NCBI GenBank assembly: GCA_001275005.1
Contig: JWZX01003286.1
Span: 1-63,380, forward strand
Origin: Chrysochromulina tobinii
Lineage: Eukaryota
Direction of reading: 5' to 3'
DNA: 63,380 nt
Part shown: piece by piece, positions 32,814 through 63,380 of the stretch
Numbering within the stretch: position 1 is the first letter of the stretch
Layout of the letters: every line of letters starts with the position of its first letter
Translations under genes and position numbers: made by a program
The notes under the pieces: generated by a model
The model's database searches: none
The model's input: only the letters and a program-made list of their open reading frames with translations
What the model was told of the DNA's origin: nothing

Positions 32814-35306
32814 ATGTTGGCGGGCTCTGCCGCGGACGCGACGGCCGCGGACGCGACGGCACCGGACGCGACGCTGGTGGACGCGACACTGGGGGACGTG
32901 ACGCTTGCGGGCGCCACGTGCATAGAGGTCAACATAGAGGACAAGCTGTGCATCATCTGCATGGCGGAGCCGCGGGCCGTGCGCTTTGCACCTTGCGGGC
33001 ACGCCAATTCGTGCGAGGAGTGCTGCCTCAAGCTGATCCAGCACTCGCTGCGCAAGAGGCTCCAGTGCCCGGAGTGCAAGCAGACCATCGAGCAGATCGA
33101 GAGCCAGAGGAGGCTTGCGGCGAGCGACACGCCGATCGCCCGCCAGGCCCAGCTTCACCGCCGTCTCCTCGAGCGCCGATCTCGTCACGATCGACGAGTA
33201 TCTCGAGGCGGAGCTCGCCTCGAGCGACTCGGCGCGCGCGGCGCTCGCGCAGCGGGCCAAGGAGCACTGGACCGAGGCGCTCAACCCGAGCGAGCTGCCA
33301 TGGCCGACGGCGCTCTCGGGCGCTGCGGGCCTGATGTTGCCGTTGCGCCCCTGGCCGGTGGCGCGCTGGATGACGGTGGTGCTCGCGCTCGCGCTGATGG
33401 GCGCGTACGTGTGGGGCTGCGTGGCCGTCTTCCTCGCGTCGGACGACTTTGAAGAGTATCTGCGCAAGCACAAGTTCGACCTAAAGGTGACGCAGGTAGA
33501 AGGCTTTGCGGGTCCGGTGACTGCGCTCATCATCCATGGGCAGCGCTGCGGCCTCAAGTTCACGCCTTGCCTCCAGGTGCTGCCCGACCCGACGGCGCAC
33601 CAGCGCTGGTGGGGCCTGGTGCCAGAGAACGTCGTCGGGCAGGTGACCTCGGGCGTGGACGTGCTGCGCCAAACTCGCAAGGGTCTCTTCTACCTCACGT
33701 TGATCATGGGCTTGTCGGCGGTGGCGCAGCCCCTCATCTCGGCGTGCCGCAACAAGCCGCAGGTGATGCATGCACTCGGTTGGCTCCTTTGAGTGGCCAC
33801 TGATTGCATATGATTGCATCTGATTGCATCTGATTGCATCTGATTGCCCCCCTCATTTGGCCACGTGCCCAGATGGTGGGCGAGTTGAGCAACGCAGGCA
33901 TCCACGCGATGGCGGGCATGGCGCTGATGGCTTCCTTATATGGCATGTTCTGGGACCGCGAGCACAACCTGGTGATCATCAACTACGTGCCCGGCGCCGG
34001 GTACGCGTGGTTCATTATATGGATGCTCATCGTGTGCCTACTCCTCGTAACGGCATTTCTCAAGAGGAGCTGGACTGCCCTCCTCGGCTTCGTCACGTGC
34101 GATCTCCCTTGATTGCCACTAATGAGCTGGACTGCCCTCCTCGGCTTCGTCACGTGCGATCTCCCTTGATTGCCACTAATGAGCTGGACTGCCCACCTCG
34201 GCTTCGTCACGTGCGTGCTGTTCCTCTGATGACCACTGCGGAGCTCTGATGGCCTCTTGATTGACACTGATGACCTCTGATGACTCCTCCTCGGCTTCGT
34301 CAGCGCGACGCTCTATTGGCTCTTCTGGCTGATGATCCCTCTACTCGGGTACACGTGGTTCTTTGCGTGGAAGTTCGTCGATACCGTCGCCGCGCAAGAG
34401 GCGCAAATCGAGCACGGCGAGCTCAGGCATGCCCGATGGATGGCGATTGGATAGCGATTGATATCGATTGATGACTGCGAGCTCAGGCATATTCGTATGC
34501 CATTCTCGACCAGCACCACCGGCTCGAGTGCGATTGATTGAGACTGATTGCCCCCTCCTCTCCGCTCGCAGGCATATGCCCTTCTCGGAGGTGTGTGATG
34601 ACCTCTGATGATGACCTCTGATTGCGTCCCTCATCAGGCATATGCCCTTCTCGGCCGACGCCGCCGCGCGCCTCGGCCCCCCCTTCGCCCTGTGTGCGTA
34701 CCTCGGGTTCACTTGCTGGGCGGGCGCGTTGGTCGTCTCGATCCTCTCGTACATGCGACACCTCACGCTGCTCCAGACCGACGACCAGTACAGGCAGGCC
34801 GTCTTCCTCGATGCGATGCGGGTGAGGCATGCTCTCGACGCCTGTAAACTTGCCTGCCTGCATGCACTCGAGCAGGCATGCACTCGAGGCATGCATGTCT
34901 GAGGACACGCGGATCGCTGGCTGCCCTATATAGGACACATAGGGCATGCATGCATGTCTGAGGACACGCGGATCGCTGGCTGCCCTCAGATTGCGGTTGA
35001 TTGCGACTGATTGCGGCTGATTGCGATTGATTGCGATGGATTCGATTGATTGCGACTGATTGCGACTGATTGCGACTGATTGTGACTGATGCCCCCCCTC
35101 ATTCTCTCCGCTCGCAGGCGCGCAGTGGCGCCCCGCAGGGGCAGCAAGTCATCACGCTGATGGCCGTGCGGGAGATCCAACGGGAGATTCAACGGCAGAG
35201 CGAGCGGCGGGCAGCGGCGGCGGCGGTGAGCCGCGGCGGTGTGTATGAGAGGCTCGGCACGCCGAATGACGCACCGAGCGGCGGCGGCCATTCCGAACTC
35301 GTCTAG
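32814..35306 (+). CDS. RING (C3HC4) finger multi-pass membrane protein, ~5 exons; apparent frameshift near 33147
   Basis: CIICMAEPRAVRFAPCGHANSCEECC...CPEC and hydrophobic helices. Introns ~33763-33872, 34097-34303, 34427-34637 and 34822-35117. Confidence 0.7.
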
Positions 35307-36906
35307 AGCGGCGGCGGCCACTGATGACCACTGATGACCACTCCCGACCTCCGATGGCAATTCTGACGGCTCGTGTAGACCGGGGCACAGGGCAGCCCTC
35401 AATCCGCCCCCTCAGTTCAGGGCAGCCCTATCCGCCCCCTCTGTTCACCTCGGTCTCGAGTCTCGAGGTATGGTTCCCCCCGCGGGGCTGATTTGCCCCC
35501 GCAGCAGCCAGGCTCTACTCTGCCACAGAGCCACACCGGCGCGCGGGAGACCCGGCGTGGGACCGACGAACAAGTCGGCGCACGGCGGCGCGGAGAGCGA
35601 CGCAGGCGACCGGCGTCCGGCCGATGTAGATCCGATGTTCGGTTTATTTCTAATTTCATATCAACTTTTTGCATTCGTACCTTATCGCTTATCCTAATGT
35701 TCTATGTTCGCGAGGCCACTGGGTACTTCAAGCACGCAGGCGGTCCGTATGCATGACGAAATTGCCGTATGCAGGCTACACTCGCAGTGCACCATTTTGA
35801 CCCGCTGAGAGACCGCCACTATGCGCGCGACACCTGACCTCAGAGGGCTGGAGGCCGGGTTTACGGAAAAGTGCGAGCGGCCTGCTGGATGGCCGCTCAG
35901 CGTGGTTCGGCACCGACACGCGTGCGCGCGCGCCAATCGCGCCGACGCCGATGCGCGTGCAACATTTTGGGGAGTCGAGCACGCTCGCTCGCTCGTGAGT
36001 TTGGCGGTGGTGGGGCTCTCACACAGACATAGAAGGCGGTGAGCAGCGGCGTTCGGGAGGCATACTCATCCTGGGTTGAAAATGCACGTCCTCTGCTTTT
36101 CTTCGGTGTGGCGATCATTGGGTGGCTGGGACTGAGAGCAAAGGTCAGCAGCAGGGGGCGAGAGCGGCTCGTCGGGGGCTCAGCCAGCGAGCGCGCCGAC
36201 AGCGGCGGTTCCACGTGACGAAGTGACGAAGTGGCTGCCTGGCATCGCCGCCCCGGGCATGCGGCGTTGGCCCTTGAAGCCGCGCGGGCTGGTGCAGGGC
36301 CAGCGGCGATACCAGCGGCGAGGGGGGGAGGGGGCAAAATAGACGTGCGCAGAGAGAGTAGGAGAAGGAGGAGCGATCGCAGGTAGCGGTAGCGGTAGCG
36401 GCAGCGGCGGCGCGGGCGGCGGCGCCGTGAGCGGCGGCGGCGCGGGCGTCGGCGGTGCGCGCACCGGCAGCGCGAGCTCCGGCGTGGCTAATGCCATCAG
36501 CCGCCGGATCACTGATTTGATGAAGCCAACTGTGCGCAAGTTCTCCGAGGAAGCTACATCGCTGGATGCGCGATGCCGCGTCGTACAAGGACGCGGAGCT
36601 GGAAGGTGCGTACGGTCTTCTCGACTAGATTAGACGCTGAAGTTCAGCATCGTGATGGCGGTGGTGGTGATGGTGGAGGCGGCGCGGGAGGTGGTGATGG
36701 TGGCGGCGGCGACGGCGGGGGTTGCAAAGGTGCTGGCCAGGGTGGCAGCGGCGAGGGTGGCGGTTGCGAGGGAGATGGAGACGTCGGAAAGTTAGGGTGG
36801 CAGAGAAAGCCGGGGGCGATGGCGGCGATGGCGGCGGCGAGGTTGAGGAGAGGGGGCAAAGGGTGCCGAGGGAGGCTCGCCGAGCCAGGACGGGAACGGG
36901 GGTTGA

Positions 36907-37556: not shown

Positions 37557-40376
37557 ATGGGCGCCTGCTGCTCCAGCGCACCCGCACTGCCCGAGGATGC
37601 CCGAGGATGGTGGATCCTCCAGCGTGGGCGAGGCCGCTTCGTCCGCACCATCTCGATGCCTTTTTGGGGGCGCATCTTCGTGCCCGTCGTCGTGGTCCAA
37701 ATGATAGTGCTCATCACCTTGAACACTGTGGTCGCCGTGCTGCTGAACGACTGCCTCGCAACGATGCTGACGGTGCTGTCGTCCCTCGGGACTGTCTTCA
37801 TGACCTACTTTGCTGTCGAGGCCGTGCGCACGGACAACATCTACCAGTGAGCGCTCGCCCCGCGCCCGACACGTGCCCAAGGCCAGTCTTCGCACCAAAG
37901 CACCAAAACGTGTGTGCCTCGCGCAGGTTGGCCGCGTACGCCGGCGCCTCGATCGCCTTCGTCGCCGCCTACGTGCCTTCGATTATCGGCAACGACGGGG
38001 CCACTCAGTACTTCAACGAGCACCTGCCCAAGACGACAATGAACGAGGTTCACCTTCTCTCGTTCATCTCGATTTGTGTGGCGTGCTCACTGCAGCTGTG
38101 CGCGCTCGCCCTCCCCCCATCCCCCCCCGCCCCCCATCCCCACCCCTGCCGCGCGCTACTCCTCTGCGCCCTGGCGACGCGCACGCGCACGCATGCTCGC
38201 GCTCGGGCGGCGGCCGGGGTGACTGCGTGGAAGAATTATGCGTGAACGGAGGCGTGACACCTGCCTTGCGCGGTGGTGCGCCCGTGCCGTAATTGGGATC
38301 ATCCTATCCAACAGCTGACCGACGCCGATCCGCTCTCCTCACACCCTTCCTCCTCACCTCTGTGATGGCATTCTGCTCCTTCCTAAGCTGACCCCCTCCC
38401 ATGGCTCATCTCGGATATAATCTCGGATATAATCTCGGATATAATCTCGGATGGGCTGTCCCCGCTCCCTCCTCTGTTCCCTCTCGCTCCCATCCCTGAC
38501 GCCCACTCTATCTCGCGCAGGCTCGGCTTCGGCCTCGCCATTCTCACCTACTGCCACCGCGAGCGCGTGCCCGGCTTCGGCATGCGCACGTACAAGAAGG
38601 TGGGCGCCGACCCCGCCCTGCTCGCATGCTACCAGCGCTACCAGCAGTTCTGCTCCTTCCTCAAGCTCGACTGGCTCTTCCAGATAGCTCTCGTTGGGAT
38701 TGCGGTCTTGGGTCTCACCGAGGGCGAGTGGCAGTGGTGGATCACCGTGGGCGTCCAGCTGCCCTACACGCTCCTCTGGTTGCCGTGGGGGTTAATCGCG
38801 GTGCGGCGCGAGTCTTCAGTGCTCATCGGACTCCTTTTGGTCGCCGCGTGCGCACAGCCACCGCTCTATGCCGTGCTACTGGTGACGCATAGGCCGCCGT
38901 TCGAGCCTCCGTCGCCACCGCCATTGCCGCCGTCGCCGCCGCCATTGCTGCCGCCGGTGCTGCCGCCGCCGCCGCTGCCGCCGTTGCTTTCGCTGCCGCT
39001 GCAGCTGCCCTCGGCATTCCCCACAGTCGCCTCGCTGCCCTCTGCCGCAGCTGCCTCGTCGGCATTCCCCACAGTCGCCTCGACGGCAGAGGTGTCGCGC
39101 TCCATCCGCGGTGGCTGGCGCGCCATCCACGCCTCCGCGATTGACGAAATGGACGAAATTGACAAACCTGACGGTGGCTGGGGCGCCGTCGCCGCCTCCG
39201 CCGTCCCCACCGTCGGCGCGGCCGCCGCCACTGCCGGCTTCGGCCAATCGACGGATATGGGCCTCGGCCACCTTCAGTTTCGTCAATTACGTCAGTTACG
39301 CCAATCGACGAATACGGGCCTCGGCCAAACTACGCCGTCCTTGGCGCAGTGCACGTTGCGACTTCGGCGGAGCACATTCCCCTTTGCATCCGTCGGTCTC
39401 GACTTGCTGTACGGGATCGCGCTGCTGAGCCGCTTGCTCACTGTCATCTTCGGGGTCCTGGCGTGGCGCAACTTTGGCAAGGGACTCGCGGTGCGCGTGC
39501 ACCGTGGCCGAGGCGACGACGACGCTCCGTCCGCGCTCCTCCTCAGCCACGGCTCCGCACCAGTGCCGAGTGAGGGCAGTTATATGATGGCGCATCCGGA
39601 CGGCGTGTCGTGCGGCGTGCATCGAACAAGCTCGTGTGGCAGCAGCTACGCCGCCGGCGGTAGCAGCTACAGGGCGTCTTCACTTGTTCGGATGCTCTCT
39701 TGCGGCGCTCTCTCGTCGCAGCCTTCCGAGCTGCGGGACGACCCTCATCGGGACGACTCTGCCTGTCCGGGCGCGCGATCGGATCTGCAGCCGATGCTGA
39801 CGCTAGGGAGTCGGGCGAGCACACGCGGCAGCCAAACCTCCGAGGTGCGCGCCTCCTTGATGGGAGATTTGGTGGAGATGGATGGGGAGAGGGAGATTGA
39901 TTCGGAGATATGGGAGCTGAGGGAGATTGAGGGAGATTGAGGCGCCTCCTTGAGGGCTCTTCGTCGTGCGCCTCAATCTCATGCTCGGAGATCGCATCTC
40001 GAATCTCGAGATCGCATCGCATCCCTCGCAGGTGCGCGGCTCGATCGACCGCAGCGTGAGCTGGGCCAACGGCGACCCCGATGCTCCCCCTGACGCCCAG
40101 AACGACGGGCCCGCCGATGGCCGCACTTCGCTCCGCGATGTTGGTTCCTTCGACCGCGACATGGACCGCGACACGGACCCATACAACGGCGGCGGCGACG
40201 GCTATAGCCCGCGCGCGGCGAGGATGCTCCTGGCGCTTGCCGCCGACGAGGGATCTCCGCAGCAGCAGGGGCTGGCCTCGTTCTACTCCACCCTGCCAAA
40301 CCTAACACAACTCAGCCGAGGAGCGTCGCTCACGGAGAGATTCGACGAGGTGGGACGTGAGCGGTCAAAAGTGTGA
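37557..40376 (+). CDS. Multi-exon multi-pass membrane protein with a Pro-rich loop
   Basis: TM segments in 37557-37846, 37928-~38100 and 38521-39843 (FGMRTYKKVGADP, LKLDWLFQ, AWRNFGKGL). Last exon ~40032-40376. Confidence 0.65.
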
Positions 40377-44680: not shown

Positions 44681-47135
44681 TCAGTCGCAGAAGAGCGTAC
44701 AGCTGAGGCCCGCGTCCGGCGGGCACGCGCAGCTCCATCCATGGGATGCAAAGAGCTGCCCACGCACGCGAAGCAGCCGAGCTCGGTTGCGCTGTGTGGC
44801 CGTCTCCGGAGTGGAGAACGGCCAGGGCGCGCCCGAGGCGGAGGCGCGAAACGAGACCGACGAGCCCGCAATCACGAACTCGATTTCGTCCGTCACAACC
44901 GGAAGGCCCAGCGGCCCAGCGGCGAACTGCGCGGTCACACGTCGGGCGCCGTTGGCAGCAGAGGCCACGCGAATCTCAGTGCCTCCCTCGGATCGAAGCG
45001 CCCTTTGGAGCTGAACCGCCGCGGCGTCCGCGCCAAGCGAACTCGGGACTGTCCAGGGCACCATGTACGCGGTGCGCGCCGCCGTGGCCATCGCCCTATC
45101 CGACTGCAGGCAGCCGGGCTCGCTGGGCTTGCACGCACGCGGCGCGATCGAGACGCCCGACACGGCGCTCGCGCTGCCGCCCTGCGCGCCAGCACCGCCC
45201 GACACGGCGCCGCCCGACACGGCGCCCGCCAACAGCGCGGCCGTTGGCGGCGGAGGCGGCGTCATAAAGTAGGCGGGCGGCGCGGGCGGATTGAAGCCGA
45301 AGAGCCCTCCGAGCGCTTCGAACTGCGCCTTGCGTGCGGACTCGAAGTAATTCTTCTCATTCCGATCGGCACGCGCGCGCTGAAGCGACGCTTCGAGGGC
45401 CGCACTCCCGCTCGATGACGCACCTGCATGCAATGAGGGAGGCCATCAGTGGCCATCAGTGGCCATCAGTGGCCATCAGCGGCCATCAGTGGCCATCAGA
45501 GGACGCACCTGCCCAATTAGCGGGCGGAGGCGGTAATCAGTGGCAATCAGTTGGCAATCATTTGCAATCAGAGGAAGTACCTGCCCAATTAGCGGGCGGA
45601 GGCGGCGGCGACGGAGCGAGGCTACTTGAACGCTTTACAGCGAACGCATCGGGGCGCACGCCGAAAAAGGTACCCACGCCCTCCGCACCAGCCCCTGCCC
45701 GGGGCAGTACTGCCGCCGCGTCCAGCGCATCGGCGGCGGGTGGCGGCAGCGGCGGCGGCTGTGAATAGAAGACCGGAGGTGGGAGCGGCGGTCGCAAACC
45801 CAGCATAGCTCCAACGGCTTCGAACTGCGCCTCACGCGCCGCTCGGAAGTAATCAAAGGGCGCCGCCGGCGGCGGCGGAGTGATGTCGCCTGTGACGAAA
45901 GGGGCAGCCGAAAAGTCAGTGGCTCTCAAGTGCAATCAGCTCAAGTGCAATCAGCTCAAGTGCAATCAGCTCAAGTGCAATCAGCTCAAGTGCAATCAGC
46001 TCAAGTGCAATCAGCTCAAGTGCAATCAGCTCAAGTGCAATCAGCTCAAGTGCAATCAGCTCAAGTGCAATCAGCTCAAGCGCAACGCTGGGCCGTCACC
46101 AGCGACAGAAGGGCCACCGAAGAGACCACCAATGGCCTTGAACTGCGCCCGCCGCGCCGCGTCGAAATAGCTCTCGCCCTCACGCCGTGTGTCCACAGGT
46201 GCCATGATCGCCACCGGCGCCGGCGTAGGGGGCGGAGCCGTCGCTGTGGGCACTGGCGTCGCAGCAGGCACTGGCGTCGCAGCAGGCTTCACGGTGAACG
46301 CATCGGGGCGAACGCCGAAAAAGGTACCCACGCCCTCCGCACCGGCCCCTGCCCGGGGCGGTACTCCTGGCACAGCTGTCGCAGCCAAGGGCGGTGGCAC
46401 GACGCGAAAGGAATCAGGTGAAAGGCCGAACAAGGTCGGGCCTTTTGATGTGGCCTGGCCGGGTGGTGTGAAGGTGGGCGGGCTCGCTTCCGGGGCGGCG
46501 GGTGGCGCGGGCCAGCTAGGAGTCGTGAATGTATCCGGCGACAGCCCAAAGAACGTTGGCGGCGATGGCTTGGGTGAGGGAGGTGTTGAGGGAGGTGTCA
46601 CGGGCGGCGGTGCGAGCTTAGGCATCGAGGGCGGTGATGGCAGAGTCAGCGCAGGCGCCGGCGGTGCGGAAAGCGGTGGCGCATGGGGCGGCGGAGGTGG
46701 AAGCGGCACCTGCGCAGGTGGTGCCACTAATGGCACCGTTGCAACCGTGTCGGCCAGGGCAGCCGGCTGCTTCTTGAGAAGAGTCCGAGCGGCGCGCTCC
46801 GAGTCGGCCTGCTCGTCCGCTGCGCGGCGCCGCCTCTCCACATCATCAAGAATGCGCTTGGTGTCTGGCAAGAGCTCGTCTCCGCCAAGATCGCTCAGAT
46901 ACTCGCGCAGCGAGATGCTGGCAAGCAGCTCGATCGGCAGCGACTGCACGACGACCTCGGACGGCGACGCGTGCGCCGGCAGTATAGGTGCGCCAAGCAC
47001 ACCGACAGATGCCGCGGCGGACCTCAGCCACGTCCGTCTAGACAGGCGAGGGTAGCTGAACGCGCTCGCGCCGCGCAAGCTGAGCACGAGCACCGCCAGT
47101 GCCGCGCCGCGCAGCGGCATTTCCCCTCGAAGCAT
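44681..47135 (-). CDS. Predicted plastid/thylakoid-lumen Pro-rich protein with a C-terminal DUF1499-like domain; introns 46099-45890 and 45580-45424
   Basis: Signal peptide ending ASA-F, then twin-Arg SRRTWLRSAAASV...PAHA. C-terminus TDEIEFVIAGSSVSFRASA...NRARLLRVRGQL. Confidence 0.62.
45925..46080 (-). repeat. Perfect intronic 15-nt tandem repeat, 10.4 copies (sense CTGATTGCACTTGAG)
   Basis: Direct sequence. Confidence 0.97.
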
Positions 47136-51176: not shown

Positions 51177-51577
51177 ACTCTGCGGGTGAAGACTGAAGTT
51201 GAGTTAGTTAGAAGTGGAGGTCGAGCGGTGTGGAGCCCCTTGGCGTATCGGATGGCGCCAGCTGTTCCGGTAGCACCCCGGTGTGATTTGGAACATGGGA
51301 AGTTGGACCAAACTAGGGAGCAAAATGCTTTCTCACCAGGTCACCAGCATGATCCATGAATCAAACTCTCGTGATTTCTCGTGAGCATTTTGCAAGCCCA
51401 AATTGCTCTCGTCATCGAGTGGGCGTGCGTGCAGCGGACGCACGACGCGGACGGCGGCCTGACGATGACGACGGCCGACGGCAATTACGGTGGACTTTTG
51501 TGAACTCGTGTGTTGTGAATTCATAAGGTTCTCATGTGTGTGGCCGAGAGCGAGCGAGCCGTGTGCGTGAGCGAGAG

Positions 51578-54430
51578 ATGCGCGTTTTATGCTGGCTAAC
51601 GGCAGTAAGCTCCTCGGCACATGCATTTAGTGTCGCGTCCATGCATGGGCGGCGGTCCATGCACACGTATCGTGATCTGAACTCGCATCGAGTCGCCATG
51701 GACGCGGGTGTGCACGACCGAGTGGAGGTGGGTGCTGCTGAGGAGGGTTTTGCGGCCTGGTGGGAGGATTCCACCGAGGAGGTGAGCGATCGCGCCTGCA
51801 CTGTCGAAGGAAAGCTTCCCGATTGGCTCGTCGGGCGGCTCGTCCGCAACGGCCCAGGCCAGTGGCGCTCGGGCGATGGGTCACGAAGCTACTCACACGC
51901 GTTCGACGGGCTTGCAAAGCTGGTGTGCTTTGACGTAGCTGCGGATGGCGTCGTCCGCTTCTCAACGCGCTTCCTGCGCACCGAATGGCACCGGCAGATG
52001 GCGAATGGTAAGATGCCGCCTAGCGTCACAGTCGGGCCTGTGACGCCGGCCTGGAATCCAGTCGAGGGCCTGACGGCCGCACTGACTGGACCGGACTTCG
52101 ACAACGCACCGGTGAACATCCACCGGCTCGGAGGCAGCGACCGGTGGGTAGCGGTGACAGATGCACCCGCGCTGATCGAGTTCGACCCACGGACGCTCGA
52201 GACACGAGGGCGACTCGATGCCAACGCCACGCCGATCGCCGGAGCCTCGCGGTGGTTTGGGCAGGTGTTGCTCGTTACCTTTGATGGCCTCTCATGGCCT
52301 CTGATGACCTCTGATGACCTCTGATGGCCTCTGATGACCTCTGATGGCCTCTGATGGCTTCTGATGGCTTCTTATGACCTCTTCGATTGCCTCTAATGCC
52401 CTTCACTGACTCGGGCAGATCGTGCCCGCCCTCTAATGATCTCCGATTGCCTCAAATGACCTTCGATTGCTTCTAATGACTCGGGCAGATCGTGCCCGGC
52501 CTTGAGGCCTTCTCAACTGCTCATCCGCAACGGCACCCGAAGACGGGAGAGACGCTGAATTATCACCTCGAGCTCCGGCCGGTTGGTGGGCCCATCGCGC
52601 ATATCGTCGCCACGTCCGCGTCCGACAACCACGAGCAGCCCCTCAGCCGTCGCATCATTGGGTCCATCGAGTTCGAAAAGTGTGGGATCAAGGTGTGACT
52701 GTGATCGTGAATGGTTGGCTGTGAATGGCTGGCTGTGGAAGGGTGATTGCCCCAGGGATTCCACACGCCCATCGCCCTCCTAGCGTCGCCGCTGACGCCA
52801 CCTGCTCTCTCGTCTCGTGGGTCTCGTGGGCAAGGGCATACCTTATGTCCACTCTTTCGGCGTGTCGGAGAATTATGTGGTGCGCTTCCCGCTCACTCAT
52901 CACTGATGGCCACTGATGACTTCTCATGACCTCGGATGACCTCTGATGACCTCTGGTGGCGGCCACTGATGAGCTCTGATGAGCTCTGATGAGCTCTGAT
53001 GAGCTCTGAGGATTCTCTGATGAGCTCTGATGGCCTCCCTCATCAGGTACTCGTCCTCTTCCCGCTCACAATCCCCTTCGAGAAGCTTGCCAACGGTAAG
53101 GGCTTCCTGCCTCAGCTCTGATGACCTCTGATGACCTCTGATGACGTCCCTCATCAGGCAAGGGCTTCCTGCCTCAGCTCTGATGAGCTCTGATGACCTC
53201 TATGAGCTCTGATGATCACTCTGACCTCTGATGACCACTCATAACCTTTGATGACCTCTGATGACCTCTGATGACGTCCCTCATCAGGCAAGGGCTTCCT
53301 GCCTCAGCTCGAGTGGGACGCCTCGGCGGGCAGCCAAGTGGTCGTTTGGGACATCCGTGGCAATCCGCTTCGTCAGGCCAAGATTGCAACCTCGTGGCGT
53401 GCGGAGCCGTGCTGGGCGTACCATGTGATCAACGTGTTTGACGAGAACGGACTGATCACGATCGACCTCAATGCGTACCGCGAGCCCCACATCGCAACGG
53501 GGCCGCATGGATTCGCGTATGTTGAGAGCCTCTGATGGCTCCCGAGTGCCTATGATGGCCTCTCTGAGGACCTTTCTGATGACTTCCCTCATCAGGTACC
53601 TCGAAAACATGCAAGGTGGCCCAAGCGCGCTCGCAAAGCAGATACGCGACGGCGGCTACTTGCGCATGCAGGTGACCTCTGACGACCTCTGACGACCTCT
53701 GATGACCTCTGACGACCTCTGACGACCTCTGATGACCTCTGATGACCTCTGATGACCTCTGATGACCTCTGATGACCTCTGATGGCTTCTGATGACCTCT
53801 AATGACCTCTGATGACCTCTGATGGCTGTCTACTTGCACATGCAGGTGAACGACTTCGGCGATCCCACGCCCACACGGAAGGCCTCATGTTCCTGGCTCG
53901 ATATGGTCGATGAGTTAGGGCTCAATTGGACTTTCGAACTCGTGCGCGTGAACGACGCGTACACTGGTCGGCGCCATCGATACGCGTACGGCTTCACGGG
54001 CTTCAATAATCATCAGGGCCCTGGGGGGGGCAACCGGTTTGGCCCCGGCGGCGCGGTGGTCAAGATGGACACGGAGGCCAACCCACCAGCCGGCCCGCCA
54101 CCAAGCTCGATCAAGCCGCGAGTCAAGGGGCTGTTTGAGGGCGAAGAGGCACGAGGAGAGCAGCCCTCAAGGGCCCGAGCCGCCGCCCCTCCCAAGCCAT
54201 CCGTCAGCTGCTGGTCGTCGGCGACCGTCTTCCCTTCGGAGCCCGTGTTCGTGGGTCGCCCGGGTGCATCTGCGGAGGACGACGGCGTGTTACTCTTCCT
54301 CGGGTACGATACGTTGCGCCGAGAGTCGTTCATGGGCGTGCTGGACGCCGCGGACATGAGCGAGCTGGCGCGGGTGCATGCGGGCTCGCGCTGCTGCGTA
54401 TCCTTTCATGGGCAATGGATACCGGCCTGA
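51578..54430 (+). CDS. Carotenoid oxygenase (RPE65/CCD family), ~7 exons, likely plastid-targeted
   Basis: VEGKLPDWLVGRLVRNGPG, HAFDG, STAHP, YHVINVFDE, PSEPVFV, EDDGVLL, SFHGQW. Signal ending AHA-F. Introns include 52265-52488, 53096-53287 and 53672-53845. Confidence 0.92.
53672..53845 (+). repeat. Intron consisting of (CTGAYGACCT)n 10-nt units
   Basis: Direct sequence, about 15 units between GT and AG. Confidence 0.93.
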
Positions 54431-55052
54431 TCCCTGAACTTAAAATGTGAGGCGTCTGGCGTGTCGAATTTAGAGAGTATACAAGCTCTGCTTTGGTGAG
54501 AGTTCAGAGTATGTGTTCCAAGACAATGCAAAATAATCGATAAACTCCGAGTTACGTCCGACGGACTGAGAATTCCTCTGACGCGGCGAAAGGTGTAAGG
54601 CCAAAGGAGAGTGTCCGGTCATTGTGGGCAATAATGCAAAATCCAAAAAGCGGCCATAACCCTTAACCGAAGACGTAACCGAAGGCAACTCATTAGGAGT
54701 TTCGTCCTTCATCCGTCTCCACGGAACAGGGAAGTGAAGGAGTAGATTCGCGCGTCGTTCCTGCCCCCCCTCCCCGTGTGTGTATGGAAGAGACGGCGAA
54801 GCAGCAATTGAGTAATAGCCCACGATGAAGCCCACGAGAGACGAGTACACATTTCGACTCCGTACTTGATGTGTTGAGCTGTTGACCAGGGTGAGCGGAG
54901 CCGTCTGTTCCAAACTGTAATCCCGTTACGTTTGATGTTTGTGTGTTGTGTGTTTTGGGTTTTCGGTTGAGTTAGTGCCTACGCTCGTCCCAATGTTCTT
55001 CGTTCTCGCGTCCGGCCTTGGGTCCGGACGTTACAGATGCGCCGCGTCTGGC

Positions 55053-57318
55053 TCATGTGTCGTCACGCGGCTTGTTCGTCGGGTTGGCGTAGGTGAGCTT
55101 GGAGCAGCCTCTGACGCCACCGACGTTGTAGAGACTCGGGTGTGGACGGAGCCCGCTCGCCGTCGTCGAGTACCGGTAGAGCCCTTCTGCGAGCATTTGG
55201 CAGATGAAGCCGGTAGGCGCCATGTCGGGCACTTTGGGGCGCACGATGGGCATGACACTTAGCCCGCCCTGGTCCAGGGCTTGGTCTCGGAAGCTCACAT
55301 TCGAGCTCGCCGCGAGCTCATCGAAGAGTTTCTCCGAGCCGCTTTCGAAGCGCACGGCACACGAGCGGAAGACGTCGAGCGCGCGGCCGAACGCGCCGTC
55401 GAGGGCGCGCCGTGGTATCCACACAATCCAGTCGCCCATTCGGCGCGCCGTGTCGAGCGGATGGAAGCAGTGCGGGAGCAGCGGCACGAGGATAGCGAGG
55501 TCCGGTCTCATAAAGAGCACGGACTCAAAGAGCTGGGCGCCGTCGTGGGCGCCACCGGCATCGTCGAACTCGTCCGGGCATCCGAGCTGCTTGCAATGGA
55601 GAGATCTCCGCGCCTCGTGCTCCAAGATCAGCCGGTAGATCGCGTGCCGACTTGCAAGCTGAAGTGGGTCGTGGGTGGGAGGCAGTCAGAGCTGATGAGA
55701 AAGGCGATCAGAGCTTGCTTCATTAATAGATCAGCCGCTAGATTGCGTGCGGGGCGGCTCGCAAGCTGTGTCCGAGAGGGCCATCAATCGAGAGGCCATG
55801 AAGAGGCCGCCATCAGAGGCCATCAGAGGCCAAGCATCAGAGGCCATCAGAGAACCATCAGAGGCCATCAGAGGCCATCAGAGGCCCCATGTTCACCTGT
55901 CCCAGGGCCGTCGGTAGGGCGCACACGTTGATGTACGTGTCGCACGGCGAGCGCGGGGGGACGCGAGGATGACGAATGTACTCACAGTCAGGCACCCTTC
56001 GTATCACATCGACTGTGGCAGTAGCAGGCCCGCGTATGCTCCCATCAAAGTTCATCAGCATGCCATCGCTGTCGACGAGCTCGACATTGTCAGGCGCTGC
56101 CCCGAGCACCTCGAGAGCGACCACAACCCTTCTGTGAATTAGGCTGTGGATGTGATGCTGCTGCTCCGCGGCAGCCGTTGGCGTCGGCGGCGTCGGTGAC
56201 GTCACAGTCGGTGGCGCCTGATGTGTTCGGTGGCCACCGTGCTGCACTGGCCGGTCGTCATGGAGCCGCAGGTGTGCAAACACCGTCGTGCGAGCACCCA
56301 CGGCGTCGATGAGATGGCCGCGCACAGTCGTGTACACGAGCTGATGCGCAAACGTGCGCGCCAGCCCCCCCAGCCCGAGGGCCAGGCGAGGCACGCGCGA
56401 GGGCTTTCCCTCCAGGGTGGTGCACACGGCGCGAGCCATCGCCCTGCAAGAAGCTGCATCCGTCCCCACATCCGTCCCGACATCCGTTCCGTTGACCTCT
56501 GGAGAGATACTCCGTTGAGTGCTCGCCGTGCTCGTCGTGTACAAGAAAGGGCTGTTCGCCCTAGGGCTCGCTCCCCCCGCGCTCACGACACGTGAACCGG
56601 CACGTGAGCCATTATGTGGCCCGTCACGATGCTGCCTATGAACGGCGTGGCCAGCGAGCCGCTTCATTTCGTCTGGAGCGAAGCGCCGTGGAGGGCACCC
56701 GAGCCTCGAGGCGTGCGCGGGGGTCGCATTCTGGAACGCACGGCACTCCGTCTCAGATGGAGGAAGCGGCAGTGCGACCGCGAGCAACGGATCCTGTAGC
56801 ACGGACACTGGGCGGCGCGCTGCCCGTGACGGCGCCTCCTGCGCTGCCCGTGCTAATGGGCGAGATTCGACGCGAGATGTCGAGGCACCGTCACGGGCGC
56901 CAGGGCCGAGTAGGAGAGTGTCTGCGTCGGCTCGAGCATACCAGTGGAAGTGGCCATGGCTGCGAGAACCATCCCACTTGTAGAAGCAATACGGCCAGAG
57001 CGGCTGGGTCCACAGGAGGTTAGGGCTCGTCTGCACGAAGATGGCGTTTACAGGTGTCTTGGTGTGGGCCTCTTGCGCCACCGTAGCTTCGAGGCAAGCA
57101 CGCGCAAAGTCGCGGCCGCTTGCGTTCTGTTCTCGCAATGGCAGCAGTACGCTCCGCACGCCCAGGCTACCGAGCAAGTTGATGCGAGACGAGGCGATGG
57201 ACAGTGGAGACGCTTCAGACGGTATGCACATCGCCACGACTGGGATCGCGAACGACGCGCAAACCGCGCGTGGTGCCGTCTCGCGTGATTCGGCGCCGTG
57301 AGCTGGGAGCGCGGGCAT
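55053..57318 (-). CDS. Glycosyltransferase-like protein (same GxxR...RPD family as 41591-42955); intron 55896-55659
   Basis: HWYARADAD; LALGLGGLARTFAHQLVYTTVRGHLIDAV; FESVLFMRPDL; GDWIVWIPR. Splice ALGQ|LASRHAIY. Confidence 0.55.
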
Positions 57319-57612
57319 GGCGCTCGGTGTCGGCGCGCGCGCGCGCAAGTCGCAGCCTACGCCGCTGAAAACTGCACGCTAGCTGCACGCTTGCTCGGTC
57401 CGCGGAGAGGAGTGATTTTATAGTTCTTTGCATTGCGCCGTTTGGCTCGGCGACGCGGACGGAAAGGAACGAAACTGCAAACTGCATCACGTCAAAAGAC
57501 AAAACGGATATGCATGCTCTTTGCATGCTCTGAATCGAATGCGAACCAAAACAGGGTGGGATCTGGGAAGCATGGCCTTACATACGCTTCAGTGAGAGAA
57601 CGACGCGTTCAA

Positions 57613-58533
57613 TCATAGCTCATCTTGTCGTGTGTGGATGTCGTCCCAAGCGGGTGCATGGCTTGCCGTGGGTTCGTCCTGTGCAGCTTCGCGCCCCGCG
57701 ACGTTGCGCGCCGCCGCAATCTTGAAGCCATCCGAGGTATCCACGAGGCTGCTCGACCCCAGGCCCAGGCTCGAGAGAAGCTCCCACGCCTCTTCCACAC
57801 CAAGGGAGGCGAGTAGATCGTTCAATCGGTGCAAGGTGCCAGGCCGCTGGTCACTCAGGTCCGCTACGAGGTCGTCGTCCTCGGCGCACTTGAGCTGGAA
57901 CTCGTAGGTATCAACCGAGCCCCAGTCCTGGAAGCCGCGATGCACGCGCACGCCCACCACCGTGCTCTCCCTGCGGCAGGTCGCCGATCGTGTCTCCTTG
58001 AGCGCGTCGAAAGGCAGACCCACCACCGAGCGCCACTCTCGATCGCAGCGCAGCTTGAAATTGTACATGTCGCGGCCCTCGCCGCGCCCGCGCATCACCT
58101 GCAAGCCGGTGAGTGCCGTGCCCGCAGGACATACGGCCGCCCCATGCTCGGAGGCCTTCGTGTCGAACCGCATGCCCATCCACCCTGTGAGTGCCCCGTG
58201 CGAGCCACACCGAAGTTGGAAGTCGAACAGCTCACGACTGCCGCTGCGCTTCGTGTGCCCAGATTTGACGGCAAGGCCGGTTACCGCGAGGCCCTCCGGA
58301 CACCTCATCTCTTTCGTTTCGCAGTGCCCGTCGCGCTGCTTCCCATGGCGGCCTGACAGCCACGACTCTGCCCAAGCAAAGAAGGCCACGATCCCAGCGT
58401 GCTCCTGGCAGTCCTCGGAGAAGCGGAGCCCGAGCCGATCGGTCCAACCAGCCCAAGAGTCGTCCGTCATGCCGGCAGCTACTATCACGAGCATGAAGAA
58501 CACGGAGGCCTCGCTTCTGAAGAGACGTCGCAT
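57613..58533 (-). CDS. Secretory-pathway protein with three beta-prism (VMO-I-like) repeats and C-terminal QDEL
   Basis: CPEGLAVTGLAV...FDFQLRC, CPAGTALTGLQV...YNFKLRC, CRRESTVVGVRV...YEFQLKC. Hydrophobic N-terminus; ends in QDEL. Confidence 0.65.
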   Translation of the reverse strand: MRRLFRSEASVFFMLVIVAAGMTDDSWAGWTDRLGLRFSEDCQEHAGIVAFFAWAESWLSGRHGKQRDGHCETKEMRCPEGLAVTGLAVKSGHTKRSGSRELFDFQLRCGSHGALTGWMGMRFDTKASEHGAAVCPAGTALTGLQVMRGRGEGRDMYNFKLRCDREWRSVVGLPFDALKETRSATCRRESTVVGVRVHRGFQDWGSVDTYEFQLKCAEDDDLVADLSDQRPGTLHRLNDLLASLGVEEAWELLSSLGLGSSSLVDTSDGFKIAAARNVAGREAAQDEPTASHAPAWDDIHTRQDEL

Positions 58534-58741
58534 TCGCTCATCAAACTAAATCGGGCAAGTATTAGTGTGGACCTAGGCGTGAGAAGGTGACTCTCGCTGT
58601 AGAGGACCCCCGCCGAATTGCCTATCTTTCAGTGCTTCGTCACCGAACTTCCGACGAATGGATGCAACGTTTGATGCAAAGTCCGGCGCCGCGCCGCAGA
58701 GTCGTGGCGCCGCCGCGTCAGTCGTGCTCGCTGCTCGAAAC

Positions 58742-60331
58742 ATGACGCGGGCCGTGCTCCTGGCTGTGACCTTGGCTGCACCGCTGCGCGTTCACGGCGC
58801 GCCCGTGGTGACATCGAGCGGCGCGGCGACTGCGCCTCGTTCGTATGCTGTCATCTTCGACGGCGGGTCCACAGGCACTCGCGTCCACGTCTTCTCCTGG
58901 CTGAGCGGCCCGCAAGCCGGGCCAACAATTGACGGCCTGCCGGACGTGCGCGCGGAGCCCGGCGGCCACTTAAAGGTGAAGCCGGGCATCTCAAGCTTCG
59001 AGAGCAACCCCGAGGAGGCGGGCGCCTCCATCCTGCCCCTCATCGAGCTCGCCGAGCGCGTCGTTCCGCGCGAGGAGCACAGCCGCACGCTGGTCATGCT
59101 GCGTGCCACCGCTGGCATGCGCCTCGTCTCGCGCCGGCGCGCGCAGCGCGTCTACGCGTCGCTCTACGAGGCAGTCGCGCGCCGAAACACCTTCACTAGC
59201 ACGCGCCGGCAGCACTTCGGGACGCTCTCGGGCGATGACGAGGGCGTCTTCGGCTGGCTGAGCGCCAACTATCTGCTGCGCCGCTCGGGGCGCATCCCAC
59301 AGATGGGCGCGGTCGGCGCGCTCGACCTCGGCGGCGGCTCCACTCAGATCACGCTGCAGGCACCTCCGAGCTTGCATCTGGATCTCCGCTCGCAGATTGA
59401 CCCTCGACACGCGGGCGATAGCCTCGCGCGGCCGAGCACTCAGCGCGAGCCGTCGCCGCCCTCGGTGGCTCTGCCGAGTGGCGAGGTCTTCGTCTTCACC
59501 CACTCGCACCTAGGCTTTGGCAACAAGGCCGTCCTCGCCTCCCTGACTGAGGCGGAGGCAGCCTCGTGCCTCGCCGCGGGTGTGAATACCAGTTGGGAAC
59601 CCTGTAACCTCACCTCGACCAGCATGCAAGTGCTCACCACGGCGCCTTGCCCCCTTCCCCGCAGGTGTGAATACCAGTTGGGAACCGTGTAACCGCTCGA
59701 GAGACTACCAGCGCTTCCTCCAGCGAGGCGCGAGGCCCATCACGCTGCTGGGCAAGGGATCGTTTGCTCACTGCGACGCGGCCGTGCGCCGACAGGTACG
59801 TTGATTGCCACTGATTGCCATTGATTGCCACTGATTGCCTGTCGGGCACGATGGATTGCCCTTGGGCGCGACGATGCAGGTACGTTGATTGCCACTGATG
59901 ATCGGCCTTGCATGCATGCGCTCACCACGGCGCCTCCCCGAGCGCCCCGATGCCTTGCGCCGACAGCTCGCCACCTTTGATTGCCACTGATGATCTGCCT
60001 TGCATGCAAGTGCTCACTGCGACGCGGCCGTGTGCGGACAGCTCGCCACCTTTGATTGCCACTGATGATCTGCCTTGCATGCATGGGCTCACTGCGACGC
60101 GGCCGTGTGCGGACAGCTCGCCACCTTTGACCGCCAAGGCCAACCAGCGGTGCATGCTCCCATTCCCCACAGCCATGGCCTCGCCCCGCAGCCGCCGCGG
60201 TTCGTGGCGATGAGCCTCTTTTTCTACGTGAAGCACTTCGCGCACGTCGCAGGCCACATCCCTGAGCACCAGCCGAGCGGTGGCGGTGCGGTGGATGCTG
60301 CGGCTGCGTCTGCGTCGGCTGCTGGAGCGGC

Positions 60332-60365
<34 letters not shown>

Positions 60366-60998
60366 AGCTCGAGGAGCACGAGCGCGAGCGCCGCGATGCT
60401 CGAGCAGGTACGTTGATTGCCACTGATGATCTGCCTTGCATGCATGCGCTCACCACGGCGCCTCACCGAGCGCCGCGATGCTCGAGCAGGCGGCCTGCGC
60501 GCTGTGTGACGATCTGACTTGCGTGCATGTGCTCACCACGGCGCTCCCATGCTCGAGCAGGCGGCCCGCGCGCTGTGTGAGTATGACGACGCACGGCTCC
60601 GGACTCTCGTCGGGAAGGATCCGCTCACGACCGAGGATGCTCTGATGTGGCGATGCTTTGACCTGACGTACGCCGCGCGCCTGCTCACCGACGGCTACGG
60701 ATTCGACCCGAACGCTCCCGTCATCGACTTCATGGGCGACGTCGACGGCGTCGAGGTGGAGTGGACGCTAGGAGCGTTGCTCAACGAGCTGATGCTCCTG
60801 GCTGAGGCCAACGGCTTTGCCGGCCACGCTAGCCACGGCGGCAGCGGTGCGGGCGGCGGCTTCGGGGCCTCGAAGGTGCTTGCCTTGCTAGCGGCAGCGC
60901 TGGCCGCGTTCTTTCTCTTGCCACGCGTCTGCGGTGAGACGCGCCGCTTGATCCGTCTCCGAGGCGGAGGGCGCGCTCAGCTGCTCAACAAGTGGTGA
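58742..60998 (+). CDS. GDA1/CD39-family nucleoside phosphatase (apyrase); introns 59580-59664, 59796-60116, 60408-60560
   Basis: Apyrase conserved regions DGGSTGTRVHVF, ATAGMR, GDDEGVFGWLSANY, DLGGGSTQI and VEWTLG, plus a C-terminal TM helix. Confidence 0.92.
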
Positions 60999-61398
60999 CA
61001 CGTCGCACTCACCCGAAGTGCGCGTCTTGCATGGGTGCAACGTGGTCGGGTTGCGGTCCGACTGTGCGGCGCGGTGCGGTATAATTAATCGGATTGCTCC
61101 GGTTCCCGCTCCAGACCGCTGCCGTCGCACCCGACCGTCACCCAATTTTTTCTTAAGCGCGCCTACCTCGTACCTGGAGCTGTACCGTGGCATACCGCAT
61201 ACGCCAGCGACCGGCCCGCGCAAGCCGCTGCTGCGCAGCGGGGCCAGGCCCGCGGTTTCGTACGATTTCGTCACGTCACGGATGCCAACACACGCTAACC
61301 GTGTGAAGGCGGCTACACATGCACTTTGACGCCCACCTCCGTTGATTCAATCCTATAGCGCCAAGCTGCTAACGTGCACCATCTGCGGAGTGAAGCTC

Positions 61399-61944
61399 CT
61401 ATCCATCGACGCCGGCCAGCCAATCGAGCCCTTGTCGCTGGCACTTTTCACGGAAGCGTTGCAACCAGCGCTCGAGAGTGTTGAGAGGCATCTCCACTTT
61501 GAGCTCACCCGCCAAATTGACCGTGACGGCAAAGGATGTGAGGTAGTTGTACAGGTCCTGGCCTATGCGCCGGCCCGCCTCCAGCACCTCAGCGCTCACG
61601 CGCTCCGCGGGAAGTGCAGCAAGGGACGCCGTGGGCTCAAGCGAGACGCCAAATTGTACGGTGGTCGGCATGGCGTCACCGGCTGTCCAGACATAGCGCG
61701 TCTTGAACAGTGCGCTCGGCGCTTCTGAGGTCACCGGCCCGAGGTAGTGCCACTTTTCGAAGGGAGCCGAGGCGATGTGGCAGCCGAGCGCCATCCCGGG
61801 CGGCAGCGGCTGCGAGATGAAGCACGCGAGCTCGTTGATCGGCGTAGCGTTCGTGACTTCAATGACCCAACGGTTGGTGTCGACCTGCCGGAAGGCGCTC
61901 GCATTGATGATCGGTAAGCCCGGCACGAAGCAGCTGAAGGACAT
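61399..61944 (-). CDS. Hikeshi/OPI10 (DUF775) family protein
   Basis: MSFSCFVPGLP, WHYLGPVTSEAPSALFK, QFGVSLEP, DLYNYLTSF, LERWLQRFREK. Confidence 0.85.
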   Translation of the reverse strand: MSFSCFVPGLPIINASAFRQVDTNRWVIEVTNATPINELACFISQPLPPGMALGCHIASAPFEKWHYLGPVTSEAPSALFKTRYVWTAGDAMPTTVQFGVSLEPTASLAALPAERVSAEVLEAGRRIGQDLYNYLTSFAVTVNLAGELKVEMPLNTLERWLQRFREKCQRQGLDWLAGVDG

Positions 61945-62269
61945 TAGTCCAGAAACACCACGCGCGACCGTCAACGCGGGCGCGCGCGGCGGCCGCCCGA
62001 CGCTCGTGCGAGAGAGCCCCGAAAGGGAGCTTCTGGACGCGCCGGCGCCGGGCGCCGCCGAAGGGGCGCCCTTTCGATGCATACGCTCGCTTTTCCACGA
62101 AGCCCGTCTGCAAGAAGTCAGCGAAATCCTCCCTATAGGAGAGTTGCATTTTGTGTGTCGCCGATGAAATTTGCAATCACCGACCGCGCCGTTGCACACG
62201 TCGGGTCAGCCTGTTTTCTCGTTGCGAGTCCTCGCGGCGTCTTGCCAAGGTTGCTGACCCAAGGCTCCG

Positions 62270-63138
62270 ATGCCGCCTAAGAAGAAGAAGGCTGCCGAGC
62301 CCGAGCCGGTGGCGGTGGCGGCCCCCGAGACCTCTGGCGAGGAATCCAACGAGCGCTATGTGCCTGGCGCGAACGACTGGGAGCCCGCAAAGATCTACGT
62401 CCGACCAAAGGAGCAGCTGCAGCTCTCTGACAAGGAGCTAAAAGAGGAGTTCACCCGGATCCTGAAGGCGGACAATCCGGAGGTTTGCCTGCGCGGGGAG
62501 CATGGCGTCAAGCAAAAGACGCTCATCCGCTTCTCTCACAAGGAGAAGTGCTACAAGGTGGACGGGACCATTGAGCAGGCGGAGGTGCACTTTGCGCAGG
62601 AGGGCATCCTCCTAGATGTCAAGTCGGACGAGGCGAAGAAGCAGAAGGAGAAGGAGGACGACGAGAAGGCGGCGCAGGCTCGCCAGATTGAGCTGGCCCA
62701 TCAGGAGGGCGGCGACGGCGGCGACGGCGACGAGACGAATCTACGCAACCAGTTCAACTTCTCGGAGCGCGCGTCGCAGACGCTCAACAACGCGCTGCGC
62801 GAACGGGGCACGATGACGGAGCCGCCGCCGTCGGTCGAGTACTCGTCGCAGTGCACGCAGTGGGAGATGTACGACGCGTACATGGAGGATCTCGAACGAA
62901 AGAAGGAGCTAGAAGGCAAAAAGTCGAAAAAGGGTGGCGCCCCTAAGAAGGCGACAAACCAGGCGCAGCAGAAGGGGTCGGAGGACGTGGTGCACACGGC
63001 GGCGATGGCGCACGCTGCCAAGATCCTCGAGCGCATGTGCAACCAGAACACCTTTAGCGACGTCACCGAGGACTTCAAGTTCTGGGAAGACCAGTCGGAC
63101 CTTTACCGTGATGAGGGCACGCTTCTACCTCTCTGGCG
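62270..63138 (+). CDS. DNAI1: Axonemal outer-arm dynein intermediate chain 1 (IC78/DNAI1), first exon; gene continues beyond the window
   Basis: LKEEFTRILKADNP, LRNQFNFSERASQT, TEPPP, LERMCNQNTF, FKFWEDQSD...EGTLLPLW. GT donor at 63139. Confidence 0.9.
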
Positions 63139-63380
63139 GTAAGTGATGCTCGACCGACCGACATCGCACGGCCGGCCGCCCCCGCCCTCCATCGCGACCG
63201 GCTTCGCTGCCCGCCCTTGGTGACCCCCCTTTTGGTCGGGCGCCCACGGCGACGCCTTGCGTCGGGCGCCCACCGCGGCGCCTTAATCGAGCGCCCGCGG
63301 CGGCGCGATTGCTCCTCCGGCCTCGCCCGCCGCCTCGCGCACCCCTCACCACGCCGCCCCCCTCTCACGCCCCCCCCCCT

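Follow-up and report, generated by a model that had tools for sequence, protein, structure and literature searches.

Copies of exon edges and shared filler repeats in the introns of an NTPDase gene and its neighbours in Chrysochromulina tobinii

The window, by which we mean the whole stretch of 63 380 nt analysed from contig JWZX01003286.1 of Chrysochromulina tobinii, a freshwater haptophyte, is eukaryotic, with a GC content of 57-71%, and carries at 58742-60998 (+) a gene for an NTPDase of the GDA1/CD39 family (PF01150), made up of four exons and three introns. Exon 1 (58742-59579, +), which matches PF01150 NTPDases and has its closest named relatives in Prymnesium parvum (52%) and Diacronema lutheri, is defined by its frame and by an RNA contig of run X15 covering 59119-59578; exon 2 (59665-59795, +) by RNA joints and frame; exon 3 (60117-60407, +) by RNA, frame and orthologue alignment; and exon 4 (60561-60998, +) by frame and orthologue alignment. 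When 59580-59664, 59796-60116 and 60408-60560 are taken out, an open frame of 565 aa results, the spliced product of which aligns with orthologues on either side of all three junctions. A preliminary description of this DNA had proposed RNA mapping as a check on the splice sites, and introns 1 and 2 (85 and 321 nt, GT..AG) are indeed spliced out in RNA contigs of runs X14 and X15; intron 3 (153 nt) is predicted from the open frame, an in-frame stop at the intron start and the orthologue alignment, and is unbridged among the listed RNA contigs. The codon ahead of intron 2 (59793-59795) is Gln (CAG), most orthologues having Val, and on this comparison the proto-splice site looks lineage-specific.

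Misassembly of the repeats described below was considered and ruled out: 59501-60700 is identical letter for letter in three of three other assemblies (L012-L014), and single contigs run across each copy (59909-59991, 59962-60066, 60063-60289 and 60438-63380), all of these being short-read data, probably from one culture. The DNA sequencing runs that match the window come from mixed-culture and freshwater samples. To judge from its SNPs, run X15 represents a distinct population.

The three introns alternate local exon copy with a stereotyped repeat module, as the preliminary description had it. In intron 1 (59580-59664, +), the GT donor is supplied by a 30-nt copy of the start of the downstream exon (29/30 matching), and the acceptor comes from the 3′ half of a filler module, module B; a 25-nt module is held in common with an intron in L014. 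Intron 2 (59796-60116, +) takes its donor from filler and its acceptor from a terminal copy of the end of exon 2 (60087-60116, +; 28/30). It also contains a patch (59876-59953, +) that copies 60404-60481 at 75 of 78 positions, with a match across the donor boundary. This source-like region, about 530 nt away, is the unspliced exon 3/intron 3 donor, and the patch includes intron 3's private copy of exon 3; its template was therefore unspliced. Copies of the spliced junction had been placed in this intron, approximately, at 59959 and 60012. The first occupies 59956-59980 (+), matches the spliced junction over 25/25 nt and consists of 11 nt of the exon 2 end and 14 nt of the exon 3 start, with exon-type bases; the second occupies 60011-60055 (+), within a 75-bp tandem unit, and the two are covered by contigs X12 record 13 and X12 record 14, respectively. 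Copy 2 and the 3′ edge of the intron share two private substitutions, absent from copy 1 and from the exon, and there were therefore at least two events, separated by mutation. Intron 3 (60408-60560, +), predicted from frame and orthologues, runs from filler through a junction copy and a second filler variant to a 12-nt exon copy. The junction copy, reported at about 60468-60509, lies at 60467-60509 (+; 23 + 20 nt, 42/43) and falls within single DNA contigs from X1 and X10; the two filler pieces differ at three positions and by one deletion, while the exon copies are near perfect. Module B is found cut at either end across introns 1-3, and microhomologies of 3 and 7 nt were measured at switch points in intron 2.

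Comparable copies occur in other genes of the window. The predicted intron 45424-45580 (-) holds, where one had been reported (45502-45533, minus), an exon-end copy at 45533-45502 that matches over 32/32 nt; the bases downstream of it agree with the start of the intron itself at 40/46 positions, slightly more than with the spliced junction (38/47). In the intron 52265-52488 (+), the splicing of which is seen in X12, X13 and X15 and the gene of which we take, from its translation, to be carotenoid-oxygenase-like, the uninterrupted exon sequence had been claimed for 52413-52428. A copy is present there, but it is one of the unspliced acceptor: it matches the intron's own 3′ end over 12/12 nt and the upstream exon over only 6 nt, and 52407-52428 as a whole repeats the acceptor of its own intron. 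The degenerate copy noted near 55760 was found at about 55783-55728 (-), where 44 of 68 aligned columns agree with the junction and detection needed gaps; it lies in a predicted intron (55659-55896, -) with neither edge formed by an exon copy. The RNA contigs show no joints for this intron or for the one at 45.4 kb. Two 92%-identical versions of this intron, at 55.7-55.9 kb, differ by filler indels. L013 and L014, which agree with the window beyond about 57.1 kb and have different DNA upstream, carry a 92%-identical version of 55055-56673, representing a second haplotype or a paralogue.

Junction copies are also present in the predicted intron 16326-16473 (-), from 16428 (23 nt + about 30 nt, 50/58), an example that the preliminary description does not list, and in the predicted GC-AG intron 34427-34637 (+), at 34477-34492, where a further 17-nt copy of the downstream exon is found. 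In the intron 34097-34303 (+), 18 nt copied from the end of the upstream exon serve as acceptor (17/18), and the changed last base gives the AG. In the gene at 51.7-54.4 kb, RNA contigs show six introns to be spliced out, and the loose end of an RNA contig marks an intron at 63139, in a gene that is presumably dynein-intermediate-chain-like. The latter intron (L013:9704-10010) is pyrimidine-rich, without exon copy or decamer filler, and represents a second intron type. Further likely introns outside the curated set described below lie at 35300-35380 and 38200-38520, one with a 15-nt upstream-exon copy and one, of another type, with a 12-nt repeat filler.

The curated set comprises 36 introns from 13 genes, 30 in the window and six in L013/L014, which are from the same culture. 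All 36 leave the frame open, and RNA support exists for nine (splicing shown for eight, plus the ninth by the loose end) and not for the other 27; most were located via their filler, so the set is biased toward filler-bearing introns. Copies of an intron's own junction, at a score of at least 5 on each side, are present in 6/36 introns, compared with 2/1260 pairings with the flanks of other introns, which is above chance; the degenerate case at 55.7 kb is a seventh, outside this count. Edge copies, in which the intron starts as the downstream exon does or ends as the upstream exon does (score at least 8), were found in 16/36 introns against 3/1260 controls, and in 4/9 of those with RNA support; they are 9-34 nt long and lie at either intron end, the other 20 introns having none at this score. 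Flank copies of at least 11 nt are direct in 15/36 introns and inverted in 0/36. The junction copies are a subset of this wider pattern of exon-edge copies.

The rest of the curated introns is made up of decamer arrays and the longer module B. CTGAT occurs in them 166 times in sense and 17 times in antisense orientation, and TTGAT 46 times and not at all, respectively; these units may resemble a branch-point consensus. The 2013 Emiliania genome paper is said to describe oriented 10-11-bp repeats in introns. Of 24 decamer clusters in the window, 22 are sense and within curated introns (5302 nt in total), a count that is partly circular, and none of the clusters is an antisense array in an intron or an array in clear intergenic DNA. 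The sharing of filler 9-mers is higher within genes (0.079) than between them (0.034; permutation p about 0.001-0.002), and the nearest filler match lies in the same gene for 12/30 introns; filler is also common across genes, the same final 8-mer being found in 12/36. Among the 36 introns, the longest stretches in common measure 9-48 nt and are for the most part repeat arrays; module B is common over only 25-34 nt. The module core at 59622 occurs with other flanks in 40 contigs of one DNA run and, given the loose ends of contigs, module B may form a family of full-length copies in other parts of the genome.

No small-RNA template emerged from an Rfam search of 51500-63380, which gave four matches, all below the gathering score; the decamer arrays at 52962-53011 gave sub-threshold C/D-box snoRNA matches from both box words, probably by chance. 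A scan for the filler pattern returned 0, 1, 1 and 0 loci in the viral contig sets and eight in prokaryote genomes, six of these being bacterial arrays without relation to introns. The six (L003, L004, L006, L007, L008 and L009) are from bacterial genomes of different phyla and are short, apparently intergenic, CACTGAT-type decamer arrays, the likeness of which to the algal filler is possibly coincidence. Four loci filed as bacterial or viral (L005, L010, L001 and L002) have haptophyte-type introns with the same filler and are likely to be contaminant or chimeric contigs; in L001, AT-rich phage-like DNA gives way to algal sequence.

The surroundings of the copies bear on what served as template. 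Among 13 internal copies of a downstream-exon start, the sequence just before the copy is the 3′ end of the same intron in five, the upstream exon in three and neither in five, and AG stands immediately before ten, as in former acceptors. The intron's own unspliced acceptor boundary is present inside six introns and its own donor boundary inside one, so that seven introns contain unspliced boundaries, where an mRNA or cDNA template would leave no intron sequence and would cross other spliced junctions; another intron's spliced junction was found in 0/116 same-gene pairs, a comparison of low power, as copies rarely reach a second junction. In view of the copied unspliced boundaries and of the five of 13 copies that follow the intron's own 3′ end, neither an intact allele nor a spliced mRNA, put forward earlier as one template, is required.

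The junction copies at 59956, 60467 and 16428 are closer to the true exon than to the intron edge as it now stands, and for these three, two successive duplicate-and-fill events or one synthesis on an intact sister give the same outcome. After two such events, the internal junction is the intron's earlier acceptor or donor, and serial duplication plus filler at an edge that is already exon-copied can produce every case. Simple tandem duplication of intron edges, which the preliminary description had set against its own proposal, accounts for three junction copies; the rest call either for two events in succession or for an intact template. Over all switch points, the sign of microhomology is weak: the mean is 1.7 nt, compared with 0.66 nt, and owes its height to intron 2, the points of which are not independent. 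Of 47 points, 13 were testable, five of these having none. The proposed template-switched patchwork is partly supported by the alternation of exon and filler and by the 3- and 7-nt microhomologies of intron 2, but its completion in one event is not needed.

A metagenome scan gave 15 loci, three of which (L012-L014) are from the same culture. L017, L020 and L021 duplicate L016 and L022, L024 and L025 are too distant, and L011 and L018, which read through the three positions, were left out as they may be transcript contigs. The genomic orthologues L015, L016, L019 and L023 (37-45% identity), the proteins of which group with those of the window and P. parvum (quick tree, support 94), are uninterrupted at all three intron positions, the gene in L015 and L016 being without any interruption; the intron-rich L022, read by eye, has its introns at other positions. 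Absence from distant orthologues (37-46% identity in all) fits intron gain, at long distance, and the identity of the copies, rather than a sister strain, suggests that the gain was recent, no intronless conspecific allele having been seen.

A closer comparison is offered by two marine NTPDase loci, L019 and L023, which are identical at 1398/1584 aligned columns (88%) and have one intron in common and four differing (L019:891-978 and 1022-1098; L023:2432-2540 and 2724-2873). These four consist of degenerate CCCTAA/TTAGGG repeats together with a short exon copy, of 4-8 nt in three and of 5 exact nt (about 14/18 by eye) in the fourth, and in two of them TTAGGG-type units come first and CCCTAA-type units follow. 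Gain is the simpler reading of these introns because L015 and L016 are uninterrupted, and the anatomy of exon copy plus filler appears to recur in another lineage with another filler. CCCTAA is the telomere motif reported, in the available part of the paper, for Phaeocystis globosa (PMC11347835); the window filler, a decamer, is unlike it.

Directly seen are the splicing of eight introns (and of a ninth by the loose end), the copies and the fact that they are direct, the sharing of filler and, for several copies, a template that was unspliced. We consider, with moderate confidence, that the introns arose and grew by repeated duplicate-and-fill repair and that the junction copies are former splice sites. 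A lesion in the gene would be repaired with a direct duplication of 9-40 nt, and repair synthesis would switch for a stretch onto another, often nearby, intron, thereby copying filler that is rich in branch-point-like CTGAT units and may bring a ready donor or acceptor. Where the duplicated exon piece starts with GT or GC, or ends with AG, the filler would give the other site and, to judge from the anatomy, splicing would be precise, allowing the insert to persist as a new intron. Later events at the intron edge would be absorbed harmlessly, as neutral changes, and a duplication across the acceptor that copies the upstream exon would leave an internal copy of the exon-exon junction. The lack of inverted flank copies (0/36) is unexpected under ordinary end-joining synthesis. 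A more specific proposal, which we make tentatively as one possibility, is that haptophytes have a gene-coupled, intron-writing repair, in which breaks in transcribed genes would be mended with sequence taken from unspliced RNA or from intron DNA close by; the patches would bring sense-oriented branch-point repeats, of telomerase type in some lineages.

It is doubtful that the whole patchwork was written at once, in a single repair event alternating between an intact sister or allele and filler. The three junction copies that are closer to the true exon than to the present edge, one at 42/43, would be natural products of such an event, and the divergence of the filler pieces of intron 3 beside its near-perfect exon copies agrees with it; iterative synthesis by Pol theta is known (PMC7407515, available part), and the Daphnia paper, in the part available, raises simultaneous formation as possible (PMC4202315). 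It does not explain, however, why copy 2 and the 3′ edge of intron 2 have private substitutions in common, why unspliced boundaries were copied in seven introns or why degenerate copies lie beside fresh ones within one intron. The unspliced boundaries also stand against a reverse-transcribed spliced mRNA as one of the templates, as do, with low power, the 0/116 pairs with another intron's spliced junction, and, although every copy is direct and the filler sense-oriented, as such a template would give, we regard this explanation as highly improbable.

Insertion of a short mobile element, introner-like or SINE-like and retroposed, with a long, variable target duplication and later slippage giving the internal copies, would account for module B and one acceptor being common to several genes and for the 59622 module core with other flanks in the 40 contigs, and an introner has been reported from Chrysochromulina sp. 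(10.1101/2022.06.06.494994, in its available part). We think it unlikely, in view of the lack of fixed ends, duplications of 9-34 nt on either side compared with 3-8 nt in described classes, several unrelated fillers with a local bias, and no antisense or clear intergenic array. Distinctly unlikely is the view that the introns are old and none was newly written, only their edges and interiors having been remodelled by duplication or conversion. Many internal copies are plainly edge duplications, the two 92%-identical intron versions at 55.7-55.9 kb differ in just such filler indels, and the intronless orthologues, being distant, could have lost introns; but the splice sites lie within exon copies of up to 30 nt with 93-100% identity, the three positions are unoccupied in four genomic orthologues and, by eye, in L022, and the sister loci L019 and L023 are separated by four presence/absence introns.

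Repeated duplicate-and-fill repair has parallels in described systems, which are compared here from the available parts of the papers cited. The listed routes of intron gain are tandem duplication, break repair, intron transfer and template switching by reverse transcriptase; for most gained introns the source cannot be traced (PMC3443670). In Daphnia pulex, neointrons at staggered double-strand breaks have exon repeats of 4-12 bp, and internal repeats mark repeated breaks (PMC4202315). The likeness lies in a direct repeat of the exon end that closes the new intron on its far side and, in the alga, flanks the insert in 16/36 introns against 3/1260 controls, and in staggered-then-staggered footprints; the Daphnia inserts, however, are AT-rich with repeats of 4-12 bp (PMC4202315), whereas the algal copies are 9-43 nt and can span the junction, and the algal filler consists of stereotyped repeats that can be traced to other introns. 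Tandem duplication of an AGGT segment likewise derives splice sites from duplicated exon sequence and leaves the coding unchanged (PMC3443670), but in most of the algal introns, those of the NTPDase gene among them, the duplicate provides a single splice site and filler its partner, and GC donors occur; intron 15614-15452 comes near to having both sites from the duplicate (7/8 and 7/7).

Introners recruit splice sites from 3-8-nt target duplications (10.1101/2020.10.14.339549), with a 4-bp duplication in a Chrysochromulina family (10.1101/2022.06.06.494994). Those of dinoflagellates and Chrysochromulina sp. resemble the present introns in taking one splice site from the target duplication and having the other in shared sequence; as described in the parts available, however, their duplications are 3-8 nt and fixed for each family, and their bodies are alike end to end. 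In the algal introns the copies vary between 9 and 34 nt, at either end, modules are cut at either end, no end-to-end near-identical bodies occur at unrelated sites among the 36, and no terminal inverted repeats were evident by eye in the introns inspected. The earlier view that these are not cut-and-paste introners is supported by this lack of a short, fixed target duplication. Pol theta and MM-BIR produce insertions that are templated and involve switching, and SD-MMEJ motifs can be inverted (PMC7407515); the patchwork of short, local, templated pieces, some joined by microhomology, is similar, but the algal introns are without inverted copies and have patches of up to 78 nt. Interstitial telomeric sequences are inserted in break repair (PMC7215372), and the L019/L023 introns, being telomere-type repeats beside a short target duplication, are like them, although in the available part of that source such inserts are not described as introns.

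For haptophytes, many GC donors and much intron retention are reported in Emiliania (PMC4028052, available part), introns come up once in the C. tobin genome paper (PMC4580454) and the word haptophyte is absent from the main text of PMC12130899. No description of haptophyte introns consisting of exon copy plus filler, or containing junction copies, was found in the literature searched, in which subscription journals are thinly covered, and the introner supplements of 10.1101/2022.06.06.494994 and PMC12130899 may list such families.

The footprints described here are a variant, unusually legible, of intron gain by break repair and duplication. How spliceosomal introns originate where no transposon is involved has long been an open question. 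In the present sample nearly half of the introns keep a duplicated exon piece, some also revealing which intron was the donor and in what order the events took place. The duplicated edges make splice mapping and gene models ambiguous in these algae. The alga is in culture, and DNA and RNA runs exist, so that break repair and intron-to-intron copying are countable genome-wide and testable at the bench. If the gene-coupled route is real, introns would seed new introns without a transposon, which would explain why all copies are direct, why filler is in sense orientation only and more alike within genes, and why arrays are lacking elsewhere.
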